Shown piece by piece: positions 2,371 through 51,988 of a DNA stretch of 64,000 nucleotides (positions are counted from its first letter, which is position 1; the number at the start of each line of letters is the position of its first letter). The notes below the pieces were generated by a model. It ran no database searches. It was not told the DNA's origin and was given only the letters and a program-made list of their open reading frames with translations. Source of the stretch: Staphylococcus phage vB_StaM_PB50; the sequence record OR770614.1. One strand, written 5' to 3'. A program made the position numbers and the translations under genes.

Positions 2371-3399
2371 ATGGATTTTAAATCTCTAGAAGAATCTTTA
2401 GATAAAGAATTTGGTTTAGTTAATGAAGATCCTGAACAAAACCTTTTTAATGATTTAAAAGGTGTTATTATAAATCAATATCAAAAAGGAATTGATAGAT
2501 TAACTAAACAAGGATATGCTAATTTTCAACCTAGTAAATTTGTTTATGCGGGAACTAATATAAACTTAGAAGTAAAATGTAAACATTTAGTTAGCGGAGA
2601 TAATACGGAAAGAGACTTTGCTGTAGTTAGAGTTAATAGAACTATTGCATCTGGTGGACAGTATGAAAGTTTAATGAATAGAAATAAATCATCCGTATTT
2701 CCTGAACTTAAAAAGATGAAACCTTCAGATGAAGCTAAAAAAGCTGCTGAAAGTAGAATTAAGAAAGATAAAATGAAAACGGAACTTCAAAAAGATATTG
2801 AAGATATTAGAAATACTAAAGACAAACAAGAGAAAAAAAGAAAGATTAAAGAATATAAAGAGAAATTGAAAAATAGTAAGAAAAAATTAAATGAAGAATT
2901 GAATCGTGATATCGATACTGATAAAGAAGAACCTATTTGTGAAGAGTGTGGTTCTAAAATGTCTCCAAATGAATCAGGTCAATTAGTATGTGAAGATTGT
3001 GGTAACACTGCAGATGTTGCTGTTCAAGAAGGAATTGTTGAACCTGATACTCTTGAAGCGGATTTTGCTAAAGCTTGTATGAATTTTAAAATAAAAGCTA
3101 AAAGTAAAGGTATTAGGATTGATTCGGGTAATGCTGTGGTAGTAGCTAAACGTACTGGTGGCAAAAACGCTGCTTTAGAAGTACCTATTATATATAAAGG
3201 TAAAGATAAAATTAGAAGAATACCTATTGGAATAGTTGCAGATCGTTTCAAAGAAGCTCAGAAATGGGCTCAAAGTAATGGTAATAAATTTGTATCTATC
3301 TTTAAAAAAGCTCCTGATAAAAAACCTGAGATTGATGAAGATGATAAAGTGGTAGAAGAATTAGAAAATAAATTGAATGAAGAATTCTTTTTAAACTAA
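2371..3399 (+). CDS. hypothetical protein with a C4 zinc-ribbon (CEECGSKMSPNESGQLVCEDCGN) and a lysine-rich coiled region
   Basis: RBS GAGGAAAA upstream. The N-terminus is MDFKSLEESLDKEFGL. The zinc ribbon is paralogous to motifs in the 6636-8552 product. Confidence 0.6.
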   Translation: MDFKSLEESLDKEFGLVNEDPEQNLFNDLKGVIINQYQKGIDRLTKQGYANFQPSKFVYAGTNINLEVKCKHLVSGDNTERDFAVVRVNRTIASGGQYESLMNRNKSSVFPELKKMKPSDEAKKAAESRIKKDKMKTELQKDIEDIRNTKDKQEKKRKIKEYKEKLKNSKKKLNEELNRDIDTDKEEPICEECGSKMSPNESGQLVCEDCGNTADVAVQEGIVEPDTLEADFAKACMNFKIKAKSKGIRIDSGNAVVVAKRTGGKNAALEVPIIYKGKDKIRRIPIGIVADRFKEAQKWAQSNGNKFVSIFKKAPDKKPEIDEDDKVVEELENKLNEEFFLN

Positions 3400-27509: not shown

Positions 27510-30143
27510 TTAAGCTCCTTTACTTTTTATTTTATCAGATACTTTCTTAGCTGCAACATTCAATGGAGGTAAACCATGAAATTCTTGAGCAAATGCTACA
27601 CTATCTTGACTGTTAAATTTACTAATAAATTCAGTATTAAAGTCGTAATTTAATTTGTCTTCTTCATACTTAGGAACTGTCATTGTAGATTTATCTTGTA
27701 TTTGAATTTTACCTATATGTCCTTCAGGTGTTATATTATATGCTCTAATAATAGATGGATATAGAGCAGTCAAGTCAAAGTCACAAACATTACTAAATAA
27801 TCTATTAGATCTAATATCTCTACCTTTAACTAAAATATCACCCATACGTTCTATTAATGTCATATTAGCTACAAATCCACCACGTATTTTATCTGCGTTT
27901 GGATCAGATAGTATTTTAGAGTGATTATTACTTAATACATATCCTTGATTTTCAAAGAAGACAGAACTACGATTTCTTAAACAAATAGTTTTCTTAAGTG
28001 CTTTACTTGGTCTCGTTCTAGTCATATCTACAATAGAGAATAATAAATCAAACATATTAGTGTTCTTTTCTATTAAAGCAGTTAATACTGTATCTTTAAT
28101 ATTGTATAGAATAAATGTATAATAATCTCTAAAATGTAAATCAGAGATAGATCCTTCATATACATCCTTTTTAATACCAGTTTCTTTTTCACCAACATCA
28201 TTTAACTTAACTGATTCCATAACACCATTTGGTTTATTTACATTTGCATATAAAGCTAATTGGTCAATCCAGTTAGTGTATGAGTTAGTTTCGAATGTAG
28301 ATGATCTATTAGCTGCATCTGTAGCATTTTTATCTAATCTATAATAAGCTTTTTTATCTTGTAAATCTTTAGAACAGAAATAATCAGCTGGATCTTCTCC
28401 ATTAGCTCTGATTCTTTCAAATATAGCAGGAAAATCGTAATCAAGATTCCACTTTTATTTAAATAGACTGTATCTTATTTGTTATTTAAACAAATTTCCT
28501 TATTCAGTCGTTGAACGTATATTAATACGATGCTGATTAGTTTAAACACTTCCAGCAATTAAAGGAATTTTACACGACCTAGAATTTTGATTAAGCCGTA
28601 CATACATCAGGTTTACTAATTTCATTAATATAATATAAAAATGCTTTTATAATTTCCATTTCAGATTCTAATTCATATATTTCAAATTCTAATCCTAGAT
28701 TACCAATTTTACTATTTTCATTATTATAAATATTATTTAAATCTTCTAACAGTTTACTTTTATTTTCCATAGTTTCTTTATAAGTATCTGTATCATATTT
28801 TAAAGCAAATGTTAAACATTTACGTTTACTCCAGTCAACAGCAGTTATAATATTAACTTCAGCCTCTGCTTTTTCTGGTTCAGGGACATTTATATTAACT
28901 TTATACAATTGTATAAAGATTAGACTATATCTTTTAAATTCAAATATATTTCCATTTAAAATTTTTGTAAGTTTTACTATTTCTATAACCATTTGCAACT
29001 GCTTGTATTCCTTTTCTATCTATATTTAATTCTTCCGCTGCAAATTTAGCACTTTCATATTCTTTTATAATTTTATCTGTTTCTTTATCTATTTGTGCCA
29101 CTGGTTTTCTTCTCTTTTTTAATGATTCTTCCATTTTATCAGTTTTATGAAGATTATTTTCTATAGCATGTAAATTATTTTCTAATACTGACATCCATTC
29201 TAAATTAGATAAATTATTATTTAATTTATTACCGTCAATATGATTAACTACATTTTTATCAATATCTTTATTTTCGATAAAATTCTCTGCAACTAAACGG
29301 TGTATTCTTCTTGTATGCTTCTTATTATTTTTATATAATTGAACATCTTCATAACCATTTTTATTTATTCTTGTCTTTAATACTCTTTCTTTAATAAGCA
29401 TTCTTTTATCTTTACCTTTTAAAGAATCATTATATACATATCTTGAAACCGATTTAACTTTACCAGTATTGGATATTTTATAGTAATTTTCAAAATCTTT
29501 AATGTCTTTCCATATTTCTTTCATTATTTTCCTCCTTTTATAAAGGAAGTATATTTGAATTATATTATTATATTTAGTCGTTGAACACTAAATTAGTGAT
29601 GCTGATTATTTTTAAACTTTTCAGCAATTAATAATTTTTTAATTGAGCTACCTAAATTAACCCAACTGTTTGCGAAGAATCAACTTCTATATCAAAGAAA
29701 ACTATATCAATTCCAACTTTACTATCTAAGTTTTGTTTGATATACTCATTAATATTATAATCTTCAATATTAATATCAGATCCATGAACATTATTCATTA
29801 AATGAAAATCTTTTAATTTTCTAAACTCTTCATAATTACCTGAAGATAATATTCTATCGTATTCTGATTTATCTTGAGCATTACCTGCTTCTCTAACTAT
29901 AGATTTAATAACATCTTTATGTTTACAGTGTACAGTTCTAACTTTTTCTTTAGCCATAGAACCTACAACTATATTAGGTGGTAACCAATGTTCATCTTTA
30001 GTTACATAATAATGCATCATAGGATCTACTATTTCCATATGTTTCTTAGTTCCATCTTCTTCTTTGACTACCATTACTACTTTTTCTTTTTTATTAGATG
30101 TTTCTTTTTTATTCAAATATGTTGATTTTATAAAACGACCCAT
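27510..30143 (-). CDS. family-B DNA polymerase, N-terminal half (exonuclease motif I through polymerase motif A); three exons approx 30143-29660, 28898-28595, 28451-27510 separated by two group I introns
   Basis: Exo I: IVFFDIEVDSS. ESEMEIIKAFLYYINEISKPDV|WNLDYDFPAIFERI matches the E..LL..F...I....PDII.GYN..FD.PYL block. Motif A: CDFDLTALYPSIIRAYNITPE. The gene stops about 70 aa after motif A. Motifs B and C are in a separate gene at 49872-51988. Confidence 0.85.
28452..28594 (-). mobile_element. group I intron (ORF-less, about 143 nt) in polB-N
   Basis: On the minus strand: P TTAATTGCTGGAAGTG, Q AATCAGCATC, P6 GTATTAATATAC, R GTTCAACGACTGAAT, P8 AAATTTGTT..ACAAAT, S ATACAGTCTAT, then a G before the exon TGGAATCTT (WNLDY). 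R and S carry a compensatory pair (GACUG/CAGUC versus GACUA/UAGUC in the other copies). Confidence 0.7.
28899..29659 (-). mobile_element. group I intron carrying an HNH homing endonuclease ORF (inserted between R and S), in polB-N
   Basis: On the minus strand: exon ...GTTGGGT then intron TAATTTAGG..., P TAATTGCTGAAAAG, Q TAATCAGCATC, R GTTCAACGACTAAAT, then RBS AAAGGAGG and the HNH ORF; S AAGATATAGTCTAAT sits after the ORF (plus-strand 28909-28925), then P9 TATACAATTGTATA and a terminal G at 28899. Confidence 0.7.
28940..29524 (-). CDS. HNH homing endonuclease (intron-encoded; NUMOD4-like N-terminus, HNH core, IENR/NUMOD1-like C-terminal DNA-binding motif)
   Basis: NTGKVKSVSRYVY ... HTRRIHRLVAENFIENKD ... 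VVNHIDGNKLNNNLSNLEW and the C-terminal AAEELNIDRKGIQAVANG. Strong RBS AAAGGAGG is 8 nt upstream. Confidence 0.85.
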   Translation of the reverse strand: MKEIWKDIKDFENYYKISNTGKVKSVSRYVYNDSLKGKDKRMLIKERVLKTRINKNGYEDVQLYKNNKKHTRRIHRLVAENFIENKDIDKNVVNHIDGNKLNNNLSNLEWMSVLENNLHAIENNLHKTDKMEESLKKRRKPVAQIDKETDKIIKEYESAKFAAEELNIDRKGIQAVANGYRNSKTYKNFKWKYI

Positions 30144-41455: not shown

Positions 41456-42133
41456 TCATCTAAATCCTTCTTTAACTAAATAATTCTTGAATTCTTTATC
41501 AGTAGCAACTCTAAATAAGTTTTCATTGTGTAAATTGATATCTTTTAAACTATAATATTTTCCATCAATTAAAAACTGTATATCTTCATATTTATTTAAT
41601 TCAGTTATTATTTTTAAAAATTCTTTTTTAAACTTTTCAATTGATAAGTGAAATTTAGGACACCTTTTACCATCAAAATCTGATAAGCTTACTAATTCTT
41701 TTGTTTTAACCTTAAGTGTATTCTTTTTGTTATTCATACCTAAATTTTTTCTTTTCATCATATTAAATTCATATAGTATTTCATCTTCTAAATAACTATT
41801 ATCTTTCTCTTTAGATATAATTTTTAATTCAGTAGAAGTAAATGATAAACCGGCAAAATTAGTTGTATGGTCATTCATATTCTGATAATAACTTATTTTA
41901 ATATCTTTATAATCATTAAAACCTCTTAGTTTTAATTTACAATCAATTTTAAATGATATTATATTTTCAAAATCAGGATTAGCATTATTCGTTAATAATC
42001 TCATCATGTTAACAACATTTACTTTCTCAATATATTCTCTATCATTATTATATTTATCTTTATCTATTCTCGTAAAATAATTATTTTCTATATCTTTGGT
42101 CGCTTTATATAGATCAAAATCATAATTTTCCAT
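41456..42133 (-). CDS. member of the KYLVKxNFK-tail family
   Basis: N-terminus MENYDFDLYKATKDIENNYFTRIDKD; C-terminus LFRVATDKEFKNYLVKEGFR. Confidence 0.6.
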   Translation of the reverse strand: MENYDFDLYKATKDIENNYFTRIDKDKYNNDREYIEKVNVVNMMRLLTNNANPDFENIISFKIDCKLKLRGFNDYKDIKISYYQNMNDHTTNFAGLSFTSTELKIISKEKDNSYLEDEILYEFNMMKRKNLGMNNKKNTLKVKTKELVSLSDFDGKRCPKFHLSIEKFKKEFLKIITELNKYEDIQFLIDGKYYSLKDINLHNENLFRVATDKEFKNYLVKEGFR

Positions 42134-42135
42134 TA

Positions 42136-42321
42136 TTATTCTTCTCCTTTTAAGATTCTTTCCATTTCTTCTTTAGAAACTTTCTCTCCTATAATTGGAC
42201 CTTTTATTTTTTTCTTGTCTTTATTTTTCTCTCTGTATAATTCTGCATCAATTTCCCATTTTTCTTGTAAAGTCAATTGTTTACTTTCATTTTTTCTAAT
42301 TTCTTTTCTCATATTTATCAA
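42136..42321 (-). CDS. small charged hypothetical protein (61 aa)
   Basis: K/E-rich ORF that fills the gap between family members. Confidence 0.35.
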   Translation of the reverse strand: MINMRKEIRKNESKQLTLQEKWEIDAELYREKNKDKKKIKGPIIGEKVSKEEMERILKGEE

Positions 42322-42326
42322 TCCCC

Positions 42327-42818
42327 TTATCTAAAATGATTTCTAATTTTAAAATCTTTTACTTCTTTACAATCTTCTGAGATTATTTCAAATATATCTT
42401 CATTATCAAAATTGAATTTTTCTAATGGAATATTATAATGTGCCATATTTATATCTATCGCATAACATAATCTTTTATAAAATAAATAATAAAGATCAAT
42501 TGAAGAGTCTGATATGACAAGATTTTGGTTTGTTAAATCTATATTTTTAGGTATAAAAGGAATACTATTAAGATCCCAAGAAATGTTTGTAGTTAAATGA
42601 AGATTAATAAAACCGTAAAGTAAGAAAAACTCCAATTTTATAATTCCTACGTCTTCATCATATAAATCAATCTTTTTACCATAAGATCTATAAAAAGACG
42701 AATTCTCTTTTTTAAATTTATTTCCAAATACATAATAAAATGCATCATCTTTTCTATGAATATCATTAACTTCATATATTTCGCCATTTACTTTATTTTC
42801 GTAATATATCATATCCAC
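42327..42818 (-). CDS. member of the KYLVKxNFK-tail family (short subtype; C-terminus KDFKIRNHFR)
   Basis: N-terminus MDMIYYENKVNGEIYEVNDIHRKDDAFYYVFGNKFKKE; recent duplicate of 43546-44028. Confidence 0.6.
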   Translation of the reverse strand: MDMIYYENKVNGEIYEVNDIHRKDDAFYYVFGNKFKKENSSFYRSYGKKIDLYDEDVGIIKLEFFLLYGFINLHLTTNISWDLNSIPFIPKNIDLTNQNLVISDSSIDLYYLFYKRLCYAIDINMAHYNIPLEKFNFDNEDIFEIISEDCKEVKDFKIRNHFR

Positions 42819-42828
42819 TTACACTTCC

Positions 42829-43530
42829 TTATTTAAATTCTTCTTTAATTAAGTAATTTTTAATTTCTTCCTCATCAGTAATTTCTTCAGCAATAAATTC
42901 CAAATTCCATCTTAGATAATCCATAAAATACATATACGAATTGTCGATCTTAATTCTAAGGTCCTTTAATATATAATATATCAATTCATCTAGAGAATCA
43001 TAAACGTCATTATTCTTATCAGACAAATAATCTTGTTTGAAACTAACTTTAAAATGTACTTCATTTTTATCCATTGTACAAGAAGATATTTTATATTTAT
43101 CACTTTTATATTTATCTAGCATACGAATTATTTTCTTAGCCTTTTTTGTATTTAAAACAATTTGAAATATATTTTCATAAATTCCATCATTATCTGTATT
43201 AGAATCAGAGAAACAAACAATTGAAGATGAAATATTTCTTTCTTTATTTTCATTACTCTTAATTATTATATCTTCGTCTACTCCAATTAAATTTTTAAAA
43301 TTTATAATAATATCTGAATGTGTATAAAAATGAAAATTCAGTTGTTTATTAATTAAATAAGAGTTTCCATTGGTTGTAACGGGTTGGTCTTCATAATTAT
43401 AATATGGGTAAAAATTACTTTTTATCTGTTTCATGACTTTATAAAGAAATCTACCATTATTAATTTCATCTTTAGATAAAATAAATTTATTACCATTTTC
43501 TAGATTTTTATACAATTTAATATTTTCCAT
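42829..43530 (-). CDS. member of the KYLVKxNFK-tail family
   Basis: N-terminus MENIKLYKNLENGNKFILSKDE; C-terminus IAEEITDEEEIKNYLIKEEFK. Confidence 0.6.
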   Translation of the reverse strand: MENIKLYKNLENGNKFILSKDEINNGRFLYKVMKQIKSNFYPYYNYEDQPVTTNGNSYLINKQLNFHFYTHSDIIINFKNLIGVDEDIIIKSNENKERNISSSIVCFSDSNTDNDGIYENIFQIVLNTKKAKKIIRMLDKYKSDKYKISSCTMDKNEVHFKVSFKQDYLSDKNNDVYDSLDELIYYILKDLRIKIDNSYMYFMDYLRWNLEFIAEEITDEEEIKNYLIKEEFK

Positions 43531-43545
43531 TTAAAATTTCTCCTT

Positions 43546-44028
43546 TTATTTAAAAAGATTTCTAATTTTAAAATCTTTTACTTCTTTACAATCTTCTGAT
43601 AATATTTTAAATATGTCTTCATTATCAAAATTAAATTCTTTTAATAATATATTATAATTTAATAAAGGTATATCTATTGCATTACACATTCTTTTATATA
43701 ATATATAGTAAAGATCTTCTGAAGAATCAGATGAGACAAGATTTTGATTCTTTAAATCTACTAATTTAGGTGCAAAAGGATTATTATTATCATATTTCAT
43801 ATGTGTAACTAAAAATAATCTAGATGAGTCATAATTTAATTGGAAGTTTAATTCTTTATGTCCTTTATCTTTATCAAATAAATCAATTTTTTTACCCACT
43901 GATTCATATAATTCCATTCTTTCTTTTTTAAATTCATTACCAAACACATAACAAAAAGCATCATCTTTTCTATGAATATCATTAACTTCGTATATTTCAC
44001 CATTTACTTTATTTTTGTAATATATCAT
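43546..44028 (-). CDS. member of the KYLVKxNFK-tail family (short subtype; C-terminus KDFKIRNLFK)
   Basis: N-terminal 35 aa near-identical to 42327-42818 at both DNA and protein level. Confidence 0.6.
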   Translation of the reverse strand: MIYYKNKVNGEIYEVNDIHRKDDAFCYVFGNEFKKERMELYESVGKKIDLFDKDKGHKELNFQLNYDSSRLFLVTHMKYDNNNPFAPKLVDLKNQNLVSSDSSEDLYYILYKRMCNAIDIPLLNYNILLKEFNFDNEDIFKILSEDCKEVKDFKIRNLFK

Positions 44029-44045
44029 TATCTATTTCAACTCCA

Positions 44046-44666
44046 TTATTTAAAATTTTCTTTAATTAAATATTTCTTAATCTTATCAATATCTTTTTCT
44101 TCATTATTTTCTAATTCATTTATATTCCTACCATTTAATAACAAATCATAACCTTTATCATTAAATTTTCTTTCTAAATCGTATAAGTATCTAATTACAA
44201 TATCAGAATATTTTAAATGAAAATCATTTTTATCATAATTAAAAATAGAAATTGTTACATTATTGATTTCTTTATCATCTACTATTAAATTTATATAATC
44301 AACATCTGATATAAGTTTTTTATATCTATCACTTTCTATTTGTTTTTCTTCATTATCATAAAACAATCTTATGCCACTTGTATATTCATTTAACTCATTT
44401 TCTTGTTTTTCAGAAAAAATATCTATTGACAAACTAAATTGAAATTTTATATTTTCACATATCAATTCAAGATTATCAAGAGAAATATTTATATCTAATC
44501 TCTCTAGACCTAAATTTAGAAAATTATCTTCCTTGATACGATCTACATCAATATGCAACATTCCTATCAAGTCTGTAATATTTCCTTTAATTTTATCTTT
44601 ATAGATTTGCATTAATCTATCATCCATTTTAAAATACCTATAATCATTAATATTCAAAATAATCAC
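44046..44666 (-). CDS. member of the KYLVKxNFK-tail family
   Basis: N-terminus MIILNINDYRYFKMDDRLMQIYKD; C-terminus DKIKKYLIKENFK. RBS AAAGGAGAAG. Confidence 0.6.
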   Translation of the reverse strand: MIILNINDYRYFKMDDRLMQIYKDKIKGNITDLIGMLHIDVDRIKEDNFLNLGLERLDINISLDNLELICENIKFQFSLSIDIFSEKQENELNEYTSGIRLFYDNEEKQIESDRYKKLISDVDYINLIVDDKEINNVTISIFNYDKNDFHLKYSDIVIRYLYDLERKFNDKGYDLLLNGRNINELENNEEKDIDKIKKYLIKENFK

Positions 44667-44727: not shown

Positions 44728-44775
44728 ATAAGAGCAATATAATAAGAGTAACGATCTATATTAGACCGTTACTCT
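44728..44775 (-). terminator. rho-independent terminator of the beta-prime N gene (AGAGTAACGGTC..GATCGTTACTCT plus U-rich tract on the minus strand)
   Basis: 12-bp stem followed by TTATTATATT on the minus strand. Confidence 0.55.
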
Positions 44776-44786
44776 GAATTTTTAAA

Positions 44787-46772
44787 TTATTCTTTAGTTA
44801 AAGAATATAAAGCTTGTACCATATATTTATGATAATTAGACTATATCTTATGATATTTAAATCATTTTCATATTTAGTCGTTGAACAACTTTTATTAAGT
44901 TGATGCTGATTAATTTTGTTTTTCCAGCAATTAATGAAATTTATTGAGAGCATACAAACTTACTCTCATTACCAACTCCACGTATACTATTTCCTGTGTA
45001 GTTTAAGTAATTAGTTTTCTTATTAATAAGTTTATCAGCTTCTTTATTTGCTTCTACAGACCATAAAGAGCGTATTGAAATCATATCCATTTTATATACA
45101 TGTATTTACATATAATTAGACTATATCTTCTTTAGTAATATATTTAGTCGTTGAACAACTTTTATTAAGTTGATGCTGATTATCTTATAGATTTTCCAGC
45201 AATTAATATTATTTAATGATGGTAATATAAAATTTTGCCATCAAAATCTGCACCAAGTGCTTGAGCATATGAATTGTGTATGATTGCAGTATCTAAGAAA
45301 ATATCTTCATCAACAGGATACTCTCTTACTACTTTAGGGTAATCTTTTAATACTATATCATCTAAAATTATTTCTGGAATAGTATCAACAGTAGTTAATA
45401 TTTTAATTTTAGCAGGTGCTACGTTCAAGAAATTTTCGCATTTATTATATTTATATAAGTATTATATAAATTAGACTATATTATATACTATTAAATAGTA
45501 TCATTGCATTTAGTCGTTGAACAATTATATTTAATTGATGCTGATTAACTTTATTAATAGTATTTCAGCAATTAACAATATTTATCAACTTAAATCACTT
45601 TAAGCAGCGACCATTTTATTAATCGGATATCTTGAATACATAACATGCTTATCTTCTACTATTTCGGTTGCAGCAATATAAAGTAAATCAATTACAGTAA
45701 AATCTCTACCCAAAGTTTTTTCAAATAATTTAACTTTATGGCGTTTACCTTCTCTATCATTTACATATATAGGACTAAATCTTTCATTAGGATCTTTAAT
45801 AAAGAATTCTAGCATATTCTTAATAGATTTATCATCGAATTGTTCATATACTTCTTCTAATGATAATTCTTTCTCATCATTTCCAGTAGCTGTTTGGAAA
45901 GCATCTTTATGAAGTTCAATAAAATCAATTATATACTTATTAAAGAATGGTAAGAATAATGTAACTAACTGAGTTAATGGTACACCTAACTCACCAAACT
46001 CAATTTGCATTTCATCCCATTTATTCGAATTAATTTTAGGTGAAGAAATAACAGCACGAGTACTATTATCTACCGTTTTACCCAATATACGTTTTTGCAT
46101 AAAACCAGTTTTACCTGATAATTCTCCTGAAGTAAATTTCTGATATATTTCAAATAATGTATTTTGTATATTATATTTAGTACTGTTAGCAATAAAACCA
46201 AAAGAATTAAAACTAATGGCATCTACAGAACGTATAATAGAAGAATACATATTATTAACTTCTTCAGTATCTTGAATTTCTCCTGAAGTTTCATTAGGAT
46301 TAAAGTCTCTATAAAAAGCAGGTATTACTAGCCATTTATCTACAAATATTTTTTGCTTATCTGTATTTTTAATCATATCAATTTTTTCAGATCTAATACG
46401 AGAATCATTCTTTTTAAATTTTAAATCATCAAATACTTCATATAAGAAATTCAGTCCAGTATCTCCATCTTCTGAAGGAACTAATTGACCTTTTTCTACT
46501 TTAAAATATTCTGAACCCTGAATACATAGTTCAATATTTTTATCTAAATCTTTTAATGCTTTATAAGCTACCGGATTAAGGTATTTATCCTTTAAATTAA
46601 TCCAACCTAAATTAGTTTTTCTTTCAGGAGTACCTATTAAACCAAATATATCATATGAAAATAAACCATCTTCTTTTGGTAATATACCTGAATCAAAGAA
46701 TACAGGATTGGTTACTTCTTTAGCATTTGTATCAGTTATGACTTGTTCAATATCTATCATATCTACTTTCAT
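44787..46772 (-). CDS. multisubunit RNA polymerase beta-prime-like subunit, N-terminal fragment (regions A to D/E including the catalytic DFDGD); four exons approx 46772-45604, 45438-45237, 45087-44956, 44819-44787 separated by three group I introns
   Basis: EDGLFSYDIFG matches ERDGLFCARIFG. ILGKTVDNSTRAVISSPK matches LLGKRVDYSGRSVITVGP. YAQALGADFDG|DMISIRSLWSVEANKEADKLI matches [30 protein letters not shown]. The final 11-codon exon VQALYSLTKE matches VLGLYYMTRD. The frames connect only when the intron cores are removed. Confidence 0.8.
44820..44955 (-). mobile_element. group I intron (ORF-less, about 136 nt), third intron of beta-prime N
   Basis: On the minus strand: P TTAATTGCTGGAAAAAC, Q TTAATCAGCATC, P6 AACTTAATAAAAGTT, R GTTCAACGACTAAAT, P8 AAATGATTTAAATATCAT, S AAGATATAGTCTAATT, and a G before exon GTACAAGCT. 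Confidence 0.65.
45088..45236 (-). mobile_element. group I intron (ORF-less, about 149 nt) inserted between DFDG and D of the beta-prime catalytic motif
   Basis: On the minus strand: exon ...GCAGATTTTGATGGC then intron AAAATTTTATATTACCATCATTAAATAATA, P TTAATTGCTGGAAAATC, P5 ATCTATAAGAT, Q AATCAGCATC, P6 AACTTAATAAAAGTT, R GTTCAACGACTAAAT, S AAGATATAGTCTAATT, ...AAAATG then exon GATATGATTTCA. An in-frame TAA lies 8 codons into the intron. Confidence 0.75.
45439..45603 (-). mobile_element. group I intron (ORF-less, about 165 nt), first intron of beta-prime N (in the NRAPTLH-equivalent region)
   Basis: On the minus strand: ...ATGGTCGCTGC then TTAAAGTGATTTAAG (hairpin CUUAAA/UUUAAG), P TTAATTGCTGAAATAC, Q TTAATCAGCATC, R GTTCAACGACTAAAT, P8 GATACTATTTAATAGTAT, S AATATAGTCTAATT, P9 TATATAATACTTATATA, ...AAATG then exon CGAAAATTTC. 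Confidence 0.7.
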
Positions 46773-49871: not shown

Positions 49872-51988
49872 CTAAAATTTAACCATATTTGATACGAAAG
49901 AACTATTAGAAGATTCTAACACTTTAACTCCAATAGATTCAATAATATCTTTACCCGGTTTAATGTGATCTTCTATCATTGAATCATAATCAATAAAAGG
50001 TCTAAATTCTTCAGGAATTGTATTACCTTCAACTGCAATTACATTCATTCCATTTTTAACTAATCTTTCGTTTCTAAACACTTCTCTAAATTTATCTAAT
50101 AATTCTTCATCATCAACTTTATCCTTAATATCTCCAAATGATTTAATATTTAATTTGACCATTAAGATATTTGCTGGGAGAGATATTTCTTTATCTGGAT
50201 ACATTAAATTCCATGATAAAGCTGCTCTATAATTCATTTGTGTATAAGGATCTTTATATACTTCTGCATTATTAGCTTTACCAGGTTTTAAGAATTCAAT
50301 ATCACCATTCTCTAATGATTTTTTAATCATCTCTTCAATTTCTTTATATTTACGTATAATTCCAATTCTATCAATACCAGTTTTATTTTCTAAAATATCT
50401 TTTTGTAATATTTCAGTAAATAATTCTCTGATACGTTTATTAGTATTAACTTTTCTAATAGCCATACCTTTAACATCTAAATCTGGAGGTTTAATTAAAT
50501 TACCTTCTTGTTGAATTACTGATGATGCATAAGTTTTCTTTTTATCTGTCGTTAATTGTTTGTCTAATAAAAATTCATTTTTCATTGATATTAACCCTAA
50601 ATGTTCATCTTCTAATCCTAAATCTTTACAGAATCTATGATAAGATAATTCTAGTAATTTAGTAATTTGATAGTTAATAATAGATATATTACCTACACGT
50701 TGTTCTAGTTTATCTTCTAAACCATTTTCTGCAATAGGGAAATCTTCAGGTTTCTTTTCTTTCATTTTTTGATATAATGGATCTAAATGTACGAAGTTAC
50801 TATCTGTCTTTAATATTATATTTTTAAATATAAAATAGACTATATCATATACTCTTTATAAGTATCATTATATTTAGTCGTTGAACAATCATTCTAATTG
50901 ATGCTGATTAATTTAATAAATATTTTCTCAGCAATTAATAATGTGAAACAACTTAAATTACTTTAAGCAGCGACCATGTTATCATAATCGATTGTAAGTA
51001 CACTTCTACGTTTTTTATAATTCATTCTATACATTCTATTGTAATCTTGATAATTATAAATAACCCAATCTTCTAATATATCAAATAATTCATCTAATAA
51101 TGGAATCATATCTTCAGGTGGTTCGTTCGGATCTAAGAAATCTTCTCGTCCAGTCATTTTACTAATTTTATTATCAAATATATCTGTATGATCTAATAAA
51201 CCATAAAGATTATTTTTAAAATAAACTTTGTTTTTCTCATCTTGAGTTAAATTACTAAAGAATTCTTTTAAATCATTTTCCTCATCTTCAGAGAAATTAT
51301 ATTCTACGTTATCCAATAAACCTTTTAATATTTCATTATCAGTAGGAACTGAATTTATCTTAATATCATGATCTTTATATTCTTCTTGACAAATTCTTGC
51401 AATATAATTATAAATTTCACTAATATTCATAAAGAATATTTTACTACCTATAAATCTTTCTAAAGCTATTGCTGAAGTCGTAACAATATCGACACCACTA
51501 TATGTGATAGCTGGACCTGAATAAGGATCATAGAAAATACTATTCCCTTGTATCATAGCACCGTAGTAACTATTAGCCAAAATCTTAATTGTTTTTTGCT
51601 CATTCATGTATTTATGATATTTGACATCATCTACACCTTTACTTATAAACATATTATGTTTAGCTACTTTACGTGAGTCAATGAAGTCTTTTAACATCTC
51701 TGCATTTAAATTTTTTCTTTGTGATTGTGGTTGATAAATCGAACCTGACCCAGTTACTATTAAATTTGAATTAATAACTGTACGTAATAAAGAATCAACA
51801 TTCATTTCTTGACCTGATACTTCTGTCATGACAGGTTTAACATTTTCTTTTACAAACTCTCTACATTCTTTTAATATTTCTTCTTTATCAAAATCCGGAT
51901 TATTCTTTTGAACCATCCATACCAATTGTTCTAAATAACCAGTTAAAGCTCTTTTTCTTTCTTCTTTATTCTTTAATTCTGTTGTCAT
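49872..51988 (-). CDS. family-B DNA polymerase, C-terminal half (motif B, motif C region, thumb); two exons approx 51988-50966 and 50807-49872 separated by one group I intron; separately translated from the N-terminal half
   Basis: Own RBS TAGGAGGTTAG 10 nt before ATG 51988. Motif B KILANSYYGAM with downstream AITYSGVDIVTTSAIALERFI. Across the intron, ...VLTIDYD...|TDSNFVHLDPLY is a motif C-like junction (YGDTDS context). The exact splice junction is not resolved. Confidence 0.8.
50808..50965 (-). mobile_element. group I intron (ORF-less, about 158 nt) in polB-C at the motif C region
   Basis: On the minus strand: ...ATGGTCGCTGCT then TAAAGTAATTTAAG (hairpin), P TTAATTGCTGAGAAAAT, Q TTAATCAGCATC, R GTTCAACGACTAAAT, P8 ATACTTATAAAGAGTAT, S GATATAGTCTATT, P9 TTATATTTAAAAATATAA, ...TATTAAAG then exon ACAGATAGT. 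Confidence 0.7.

Follow-up and report, generated by a model that had tools for sequence, protein, structure and literature searches.

A probable miniaturised group I intron within the DFDGD codons of the RNA polymerase beta-prime gene of Staphylococcus phage vB_StaM_PB50

Twort orf142 offers a precedent for a group I intron in an essential phage gene, and splicing has been demonstrated for the RNA polymerase (RNAP) genes of phage AR9. Among natural group I introns known to self-splice, the one in Azoarcus tRNA-Ile, about 205 nucleotides (nt) long, has been cited as the smallest. Introns in the conserved catalytic codons of essential phage genes have been reviewed as a textbook pattern, and the vRNAP beta gene of PhiPA3 is split beside conserved aspartates by a putative group I intron that carries the HNH endonuclease gp210 (PMC11620839). 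Huge gut 'Jug' phages carry group I introns without an open reading frame (ORF) in essential genes, with a mean of 18.5 per genome and a length of about 206 nt, and metatranscriptomes confirmed splicing for 37 of 76 introns (PMC12880540, Sci Adv 2026). The preprint of Korn et al. (bioRxiv 10.1101/2020.12.14.422802) reports that RNAP subunit genes are disrupted by introns in phages MarsHill, Madawaska, and Machias, cites splicing of the AR9 RNAP genes, and predicts mature proteins and exon boundaries by AR9 protein alignment only; a word search of the preprint returned no passage on intron class or structure. The subject here is a 149-nt element at positions 45236-45088, on the minus strand of a 64,000-nt stretch of DNA from Staphylococcus phage vB_StaM_PB50 (OR770614.1; hereafter the window). 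It is very probably a group I intron, miniaturised and ORF-less, that lies in the mRNA encoding the N-terminal half of the beta-prime subunit of the jumbo-phage multisubunit RNAP, where it is the second of three interruptions and is referred to as intron 2.

Intron 2 shares its P/Q/R/S core type, as well as its position at conserved catalytic residues of an essential gene, with the introns of Twort nrdE, T4 td, nrdB, and sunY, the SPO1 DNA polymerase gene, and PhiPA3. Phage group I systems likewise have several introns per gene, introns that are present or absent among relatives, and endonucleases in sister alleles. Unlike those phage introns, intron 2 has no ORF, P2, P7.1/7.2, or P8, measures only 149 nt, and carries C.A instead of U.G at the cleavage site. 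The Azoarcus intron has a similarly compact core without large peripheral domains but keeps P2 and P8, which dock with each other, whereas intron 2 has neither and is about 55 nt shorter. In comparison to the introns of the 'Jug' phages, the Staphylococcus copies belong to a different host and phage lineage and are shorter (142-183 nt in the beta-prime gene).

The upstream exon reads TCA TAT GCT CAA GCA CTT GGT GCA GAT TTT GAT GGC on the minus strand, with the final C at 45237. Past this position the frame enters the insert as AAA ATT TTA TAT TAC CAT CAT TAA, with the in-frame stop eight codons in. Coding resumes at 45087 with GAT ATG ATT TCA ATA CGC... (DMISIRSLWSVEANKEADKLI), which places intron 2 exactly between GGC (Gly) and GAT (Asp) of DFDGD. 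The insert ends in G at 45088 (the omega G), and no other in-frame join leaves a 3'-terminal G. Phage S6 has a single uninterrupted gene of 503 codons, which reads ...YSRYPIENFLNVAPAK...GALGADFDGDMISIRSLW...NLGNESVQALYSLTKE followed by a stop and runs straight through ...ADFDGDMISIR.... As far as sequence can decide the matter, the junction is proven by this natural intronless allele, and it is highly likely that intron 2 is removed by splicing in vivo.

The interrupted gene, at 46772-44787 on the minus strand, encodes the N-terminal half of the beta-prime subunit and is cut by three ORF-less group I introns. A tblastn search with the S6 protein located the three breaks, and the layout is as follows:

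46772-45622, minus: exon 1, 1151 nt, amino acids (aa) 1-384, ending HVMYSRYPI; placed by tblastn of aa 1-384 of the intronless S6 protein and by splice reconstruction
45621-45439, minus: intron 1, 183 nt, ORF-less group I; both P8 and a P2 hairpin (loop GUGA) present
45438-45237, minus: exon 2, 202 nt, ENFLNVAPAK...YAQALGADFDG
45236-45088, minus: intron 2, 149 nt, ORF-less group I, between DFDG and D
45087-44962, minus: exon 3, 126 nt, DMISIRSLWSVEANKEADKLINKKTNYLNYTGNSIRGVGNES
44961-44820, minus: intron 3, 142 nt, ORF-less group I, with P1 GAGAGU/GCUCUC (canonical U.G) and a 10-bp P10
44819-44787, minus: exon 4 with stop, 33 nt, VQALYSLTKE and stop
44745-44774, minus: probable transcription terminator of the beta-prime gene, inferred by direct reading of a GC-containing hairpin (agagtaacg...cgttactct) with a T-rich tail

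The edge of intron 1 is uncertain by 1 nt, and ccgat^t...aaatg^c is favoured because a terminal G remains. In intron 3, P8 is present and P5 is undetectable. The four exons join in frame to 1512 nt, and the resulting product of 503 aa is colinear with the 503-aa S6 protein, without gaps and with 85% identity. One continuous protein of about 503 aa is found in the intronless S6 and also in many metagenomic homologues.

Several lines of evidence tie this spliced reading to RNAP. The spliced protein matches Pfam PF00623 (RNA_pol_Rpb1_2) at residues 437-473, with 25.5 bits against a cutoff of 25.3, whereas the three exon ORFs taken separately have no Pfam match. Against PDB, the spliced protein finds AR9 beta-prime (7s00) with E = 1e-12, and bacterial beta-prime aligns over residues 437-502. 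Furthermore, the Mg-binding motif GADFDGD of the double-psi beta-barrel region exists only in the spliced reading. Comparison with S6 gives the window gene a ratio of nonsynonymous to synonymous substitution (dN/dS) of 0.15 over its full length and 0.11 over exons 2-4 (pS 0.51), a sign of purifying selection, from which it follows that the coding sequence past the interruptions is translated in that frame. Peptides expected from the spliced product are FDGDMISIR and GVGNESVQALYSLTK, and an unspliced reading of exon 2 would give a peptide ending ADFDGKILYYHH. The original prediction had been made from the letters of the window, and its coordinates (45088-45236), exon ends, and translation proved exact on re-reading and splice reconstruction. 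Its placement of the insert between DFDG and D of the Mg-binding motif is confirmed by the intronless S6 allele, which reads through, and its identification of the gene as RNAP beta-prime agrees with the matches to PF00623, AR9, and bacterial beta-prime, which only the spliced product gives.

Over 4 kb around the site, DNA identity reaches 97.5% with the Staphylococcus jumbo phage Machias, 94.9% with AH12, and about 84% with MarsHill, Madawaska, S6, LY01, and others. The junction was already on record: the GenBank protein CPT_Machias_117 (QQO92504.1; 499 aa) uses the same join, reading ...GADFDGDMISIR... (...ADFDG^DMISIR...). It is annotated as 'viral RNA polymerase beta-prime subunit, N-terminal', a three-piece join with exon boundaries taken from alignment to YP_009283049. 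With the junction already public in so similar a genome, the finding is correct and largely ordinary. The Machias ortholog has the same gene and intron, with one base different in a loop, and its deposited model omits intron 3 and exon 4. The C-termini of the deposited proteins are ...NESKFVCSQ in Machias and ...NESNMLVCSQ in MarsHill, which represents read-through into intron 3 with exon 4 missed; intronless homologues end ...VQALYSLTKE, ...SLYSLTKE, or ...IYSLTR. Searches of the literature and GenBank found no description of the class and structure of intron 2, its missing P8 and P2, the C.A pair, or intron 3. Less ordinary are the extreme reduction (without P2 and P8), the C.A pair at the cleavage site, and the sub-threshold Rfam score.

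The assignment to group I begins with the P, Q, R, and S elements, which intron 2 carries in the right order (AATTGCTGG, AATCAGCA, GTTCAACGACTA, and AGATATAGTC). The 17-mer of the R element occurs eight times in the window where 0.45 copies are expected, and none of 100 shuffles reached eight. Rfam RF00028 aligned end to end over 45273-45099 with 32.6 bits (E = 3.6e-6 in a 1.4-kb search), while intron 3 scored 27.8 bits and intron 1 gave a partial match of 21.9 bits. A single-sequence minimum free energy (MFE) fold of intron 2 yields P1, P4, P5, P6, P7, and P9. Related places number 112 by blastn in five Staphylococcus jumbo-phage genomes, with 10-33 per genome.

The covariation analysis used 30 distinct copies of the family, collected from the window, MarsHill, AH12, and a 150-kb portion of LY01. 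Within this set, P3, P4, P6, and P7, including the P3/P7 pseudoknot, are 99.1% paired (86.2% when shuffled), and 10 pairs change on both sides where 5.8 are expected. None of 500 shuffles reached any of these measures, and sliding the partner strand by 1-3 columns lowered pairing to 21-51%. Five of the six P3 pairs change on both sides; P7, with its bulged C and conserved G-C pair, is invariant apart from one compensatory A-U to G-C change. Because of the pairing, the two-sided changes, and the shuffle and slide controls, the core of intron 2 is judged to be a bona fide group I core. Its parts, with the guide pairings, can be placed as follows:

45243-45237, minus: exon strand of P1, UGAUGGC, the last 7 nt of exon 2
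45224-45231, minus: P10 guide UUUAUAUU, pairing with GAUAUGA, the first 7 nt of exon 3; direct reading, also present in MarsHill
45217-45223, minus: internal guide sequence ACCAUCA, pairing with exon UGAUGGC (P1); helix recovered in the MFE fold
45206-45211, minus: 5' strand of P3, UAAUAU, pairing with AUAUUA at 45141-45136; covariation
45174-45201, minus: P4, UGCUGG/UCAGCA, enclosing A-rich J4/5 and a 4-bp P5 (AUCU/AGAU, loop AUA)
45156-45172, minus: P6 hairpin CAACUU-AAUAA-AAGUUG, inside a 43-nt stretch identical to intron 3
45145-45152, minus: 5' strand of P7, A(C)GACUA (R element), pairing with UAGUCU at 45123-45118 (S element)
45124-45135, minus: CUAAAGAAGAUA, single-stranded link from P3 to P7 in the usual position of P8
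45097-45114, minus: P9 hairpin UAUAUGU-AAAU-ACAUGUA; fold and reading
45088, minus: omega G, the terminal nucleotide of intron 2

The 5' segment of intron 2 reads AAAAU UUUAUAUU ACCAUCA UU, so the guides for P1 and P10 are contiguous (7 + 7 bp) and both exons are aligned on one guide. The three orthologous copies of intron 2 differ at only two points: the P5 loop, where Machias has a 1-nt indel, and the P10 guide, where U-to-C in AH12 converts a G.U pair to G-C. From this anatomy, a conventional course of splicing can be proposed. The guide 5'-UUUAUAUU^ACCAUCA-3' would pair with the last seven bases of exon 2 to form P1 and with the first seven of exon 3 to form P10. The P3-P4-P6-P7 core would bind guanosine, with cleavage after GGC; the terminal G (45088) would next fill the same site, and exon ligation would give GAT TTT GAT GGC^GAT ATG, restoring the three-aspartate, Mg-binding DFDGD. 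Both sister introns of the gene would need to be removed as well.

Several points weigh against reading intron 2 as a spliced group I intron. Splicing is a comparative inference from the intronless allele, the purifying selection on the downstream exons, and the viable isolates. The Rfam score of 32.6 bits is well under the curated gathering threshold of 50, an Rfam search of the whole window at the gathering threshold gave zero matches, and the folding energy of intron 2 is unexceptional for an AT-rich sequence (z = -1.35). The intron lacks both P2 and P8, the latter of which normally belongs to the conserved core, and the last nucleotide of exon 2 is a C that faces a guide A in place of the near-universal U.G. 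Finally, the register GG^G GAT yields an identical protein; for this reason the exact phosphodiester is uncertain from the protein, and its position rests on the terminal-G rule and the P1/P10 register. The alternative register was rejected, as it leaves a 3'-terminal U and P1 and P10 are no longer contiguous.

Comparison among relatives places the C.A pair in context. At the same site in MarsHill and LY01, the exon reads GAC GGU and the guide GCCGU, with U.G present, as it is in Madawaska. The exon GAU GGC and guide ACCAUC of the window differ from these by two compensatory changes, C-G to U-A and U.G to C.A. A second swap of U.G to C.A separates two paralogous introns, namely that of the beta gene in the window (exon tatGGT^, guide aaatGCCttt) and an extra intron of AH12 (exon cttGGC^, guide aatgACCttt). 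C.A is reportedly able to replace U.G in vitro.

The reduction of intron 2 extends beyond the loss of P2, as P5 has 4 bp, P6 has 6 bp, and only CUAAAG lies between P3' and the J8/7 sequence AAGAUA. No foldable hairpin was found in the P8 position of intron 2, where Rfam sets 2 nt against 59 model positions. The P8 deletion recurs in 9 of the 30 family copies, at no fewer than seven (at least 7) sites that include the Toprim DAD^DDG motif of gyrB. Some 120 IMG/VR contigs with the same P/Q/R motifs mostly have a P7-to-P7' spacing of 54-86 nt, compared to 21-22 nt here, and scanning IMG/VR with the exact pattern of the P8-less segment of Staphylococcus type returned 0 matches. A looser scan of IMG/VR for R...S returned 44 stretches (21 unique) with equally short spacing, mostly on contigs of 230-400 kb; the loss of P8, though rare, therefore extends beyond this clade. 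The notion that it is unique to the clade was dropped, P8-less introns having been found in other huge phages. Literature searches on the smallest or P8-less group I introns yielded nothing useful. The group I call made in the original prediction from P, Q, R, and S stands, with core motifs, covarying helices, guide pairings, and a terminal G in its favor; the prediction had the junction right but overlooked that exon 2 ends in C rather than U and that P8 is missing.

The G^D site is polymorphic among related phages. It is empty in S6, holds a P8-less intron of 149/150 nt in the window, Machias, and AH12, and holds an intron of about 150 nt with P8 in MarsHill and LY01. In Madawaska it is occupied by a 1.47-kb intron whose P1 loop contains a 378-aa ORF, annotated as a homing endonuclease and matching a treble-clef zinc finger. 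On these comparisons, the DFDGD-coding site is an intron hot spot. Presence and absence at the exact site, including the endonuclease intron of Madawaska, also support the earlier suggestion of homing into conserved sites. An intron-encoded endonuclease is absent from intron 2, which at 149 nt is too short for such an ORF. Shared ancestry of intron 2 and the Madawaska intron is not claimed, their likeness being restricted to the guide region, where it is uninformative because it is forced by the common exon sequence. Since intron 2 has no endonuclease gene, its maintenance is probably due to vertical descent, recombination with paralogous introns, and co-conversion in mixed infections with endonuclease-carrying relatives. 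A 43-nt stretch comprising the Q element, P6, and the R element is 100% identical in introns 2 and 3 (45142-45182 and 44872-44912), and intron 3 of MarsHill has essentially the same core as intron 2 of the window. Together, these observations point to recombination between paralogous introns, and the 43-nt identity is consistent with gene conversion between neighbours.

Sister introns in the beta-prime genes of relatives show further variety. AH12 has a further group I intron 15 nt upstream, which leaves a 15-nt micro-exon, GCTGACTTTGATGGC (ADFDG), between two group I introns (about 2061-1722, minus strand of the examined locus). In LY01 the 3' part of the gene (27620-26150, minus strand of the examined locus) contains five introns, with micro-exons of 14 nt and 9 nt (TTTGACGGT, encoding FDG); for the larger LY01 intron after ...YAG, no in-frame join puts a U at -1. 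The first intron site of MarsHill (about 4453-2985, minus strand of the examined locus) is occupied by a group II intron instead, with 5' GUGCG and a match of 57 bits to Rfam RF00029, domain V/VI, at 2978-3049. The ORF of this group II intron is annotated as a homing endonuclease; its sole Pfam match is to DUF2726 below threshold (19.1 against 24.7 bits), and Pfam detected no reverse-transcriptase domain. At the gathering threshold, Rfam found nothing in the Madawaska, MarsHill, and AH12 loci besides this group II domain.

How the transcript is handled could differ from the course proposed above. One possibility, unlikely though to be taken seriously, is that intron 2 is removed in vivo without being autonomous, and needs a phage or host protein, or the neighbouring introns, to fold and splice. 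The joint loss of P2 and P8, the C.A pair at the cleavage site, the sub-threshold Rfam score, and the weak thermodynamic stability all speak for such dependence, as does the P8 loss common to 9 of 30 copies. Intron 3, which lies 126 nt downstream, retains P8 and is without P5. In addition, a load of about 10-33 intron matches per genome could favour a shared cofactor. However, J4/5, the P7 bulge and G-C pair, J8/7 AAGAUA, and the terminal G are intact and either covary or are invariant, P8-less copies stand alone in other essential genes such as gyrB, and no candidate maturase was identified. As to autonomy itself, intron 2 may self-splice unaided, with the balance tilted somewhat against it, and it is doubtful that the 142-149-nt introns of the beta-prime gene would be fully autonomous ribozymes.

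The remaining alternatives dispense with splicing. In phages whose beta and beta-prime subunits are already divided among several genes, the N-terminal half of beta-prime might itself be made as separate assembling polypeptides of 390, 71, and 49 aa, and the mechanically called ORFs do offer starts at TTG 45428 and ATG 45090. This is very improbable: the catalytic triad would be split over two polypeptides, no ribosome-binding site is recognisable upstream of either fragment, the products would end in the junk tails KILYYHH and KFVCSQ, and S6 together with many metagenomic homologues encodes a single chain of about 503 aa. Moreover, the interruptions hold complete group I cores with guides to both exons. 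The in-frame stop eight codons into the insert and the shortness of the interruption would also suit a decaying pseudogene, or translational bypassing over the gap as in T4 gene 60, which seems less probable still. A dN/dS of 0.11 on the exons downstream of the interruptions argues against both, as does retention of the arrangement in several plaque-forming isolates, and either would leave the group I anatomy without explanation. For bypassing in particular, the take-off and landing codons do not match (GGC and ...AUG GAU), and 149 nt is about three times the gap in T4 gene 60. A group I intron spliced from the mRNA thus remains the preferred reading of the locus.

Other members of the same intron family, and one set of repeated genes, were observed elsewhere in the window; the intron boundaries given for the first three lines are approximate:

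about 755-916 and about 1343-1522, plus: a further two ORF-less members of this group I family in gene 155-2281, which is RNA polymerase beta-like (its last exon matches Pfam Rpb2 domain 6); the first intron apparently follows ...HADD
about 29659-28887, minus: group I intron with an I-HmuI-like HNH/NUMOD4 endonuclease ORF (28940-29524)
about 28593-28450, minus: second, ORF-less mini intron in the same gene, the exons of which have polymerase-exonuclease-like motifs (FFDIEVD...)
about 50975-50808, minus: mini group I intron that separates ORFs 50963-51988 and 49872-50765 of a family-B DNA polymerase gene; both ORFs match Pfam divDNApol
41456-44666, minus: tandem paralogous ORFs of 160-233 aa, some pairs about 80% identical, all ending ...YL(I/V)KE(E/G/N)F(K/R)

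The 5' part (P1/P2) of the intron at about 50975-50808 is 85% identical to its counterpart in beta-prime intron 1. Outside the window, the Toprim metal-binding motif of gyrB (SDAD^DDGLH) holds a P8-less mini intron in MarsHill (1474-1649 of the examined locus) and in LY01. The P1 (CGAU/GUCG) and 5' end of this gyrB intron resemble those of beta-prime intron 1, which suggests spread to sites with similar exon sequence.

For the phage, these results mean that a catalytic subunit of its RNAP is readable only after removal of three small introns, and that the publicly deposited proteins of Machias and MarsHill have the wrong C-terminus because intron 3 and exon 4 were missed. The DFDGD-coding DNA provides a clean case of an intron hot spot, with empty, mini-intron, and endonuclease-intron states. 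The intron family, in turn, offers a deletion series made by nature, in which P2, P8, or P5 is missing from the group I core, and it includes two independent swaps of U.G to C.A. If the 142-149-nt introns are autonomous, no natural self-splicing group I intron known to us would be smaller, P8 and the U.G wobble would be dispensable in nature, and P2 and P8 would have been lost together. Should they self-splice, introns of this family would also be attractive minimal scaffolds, for instance in circular-RNA engineering.

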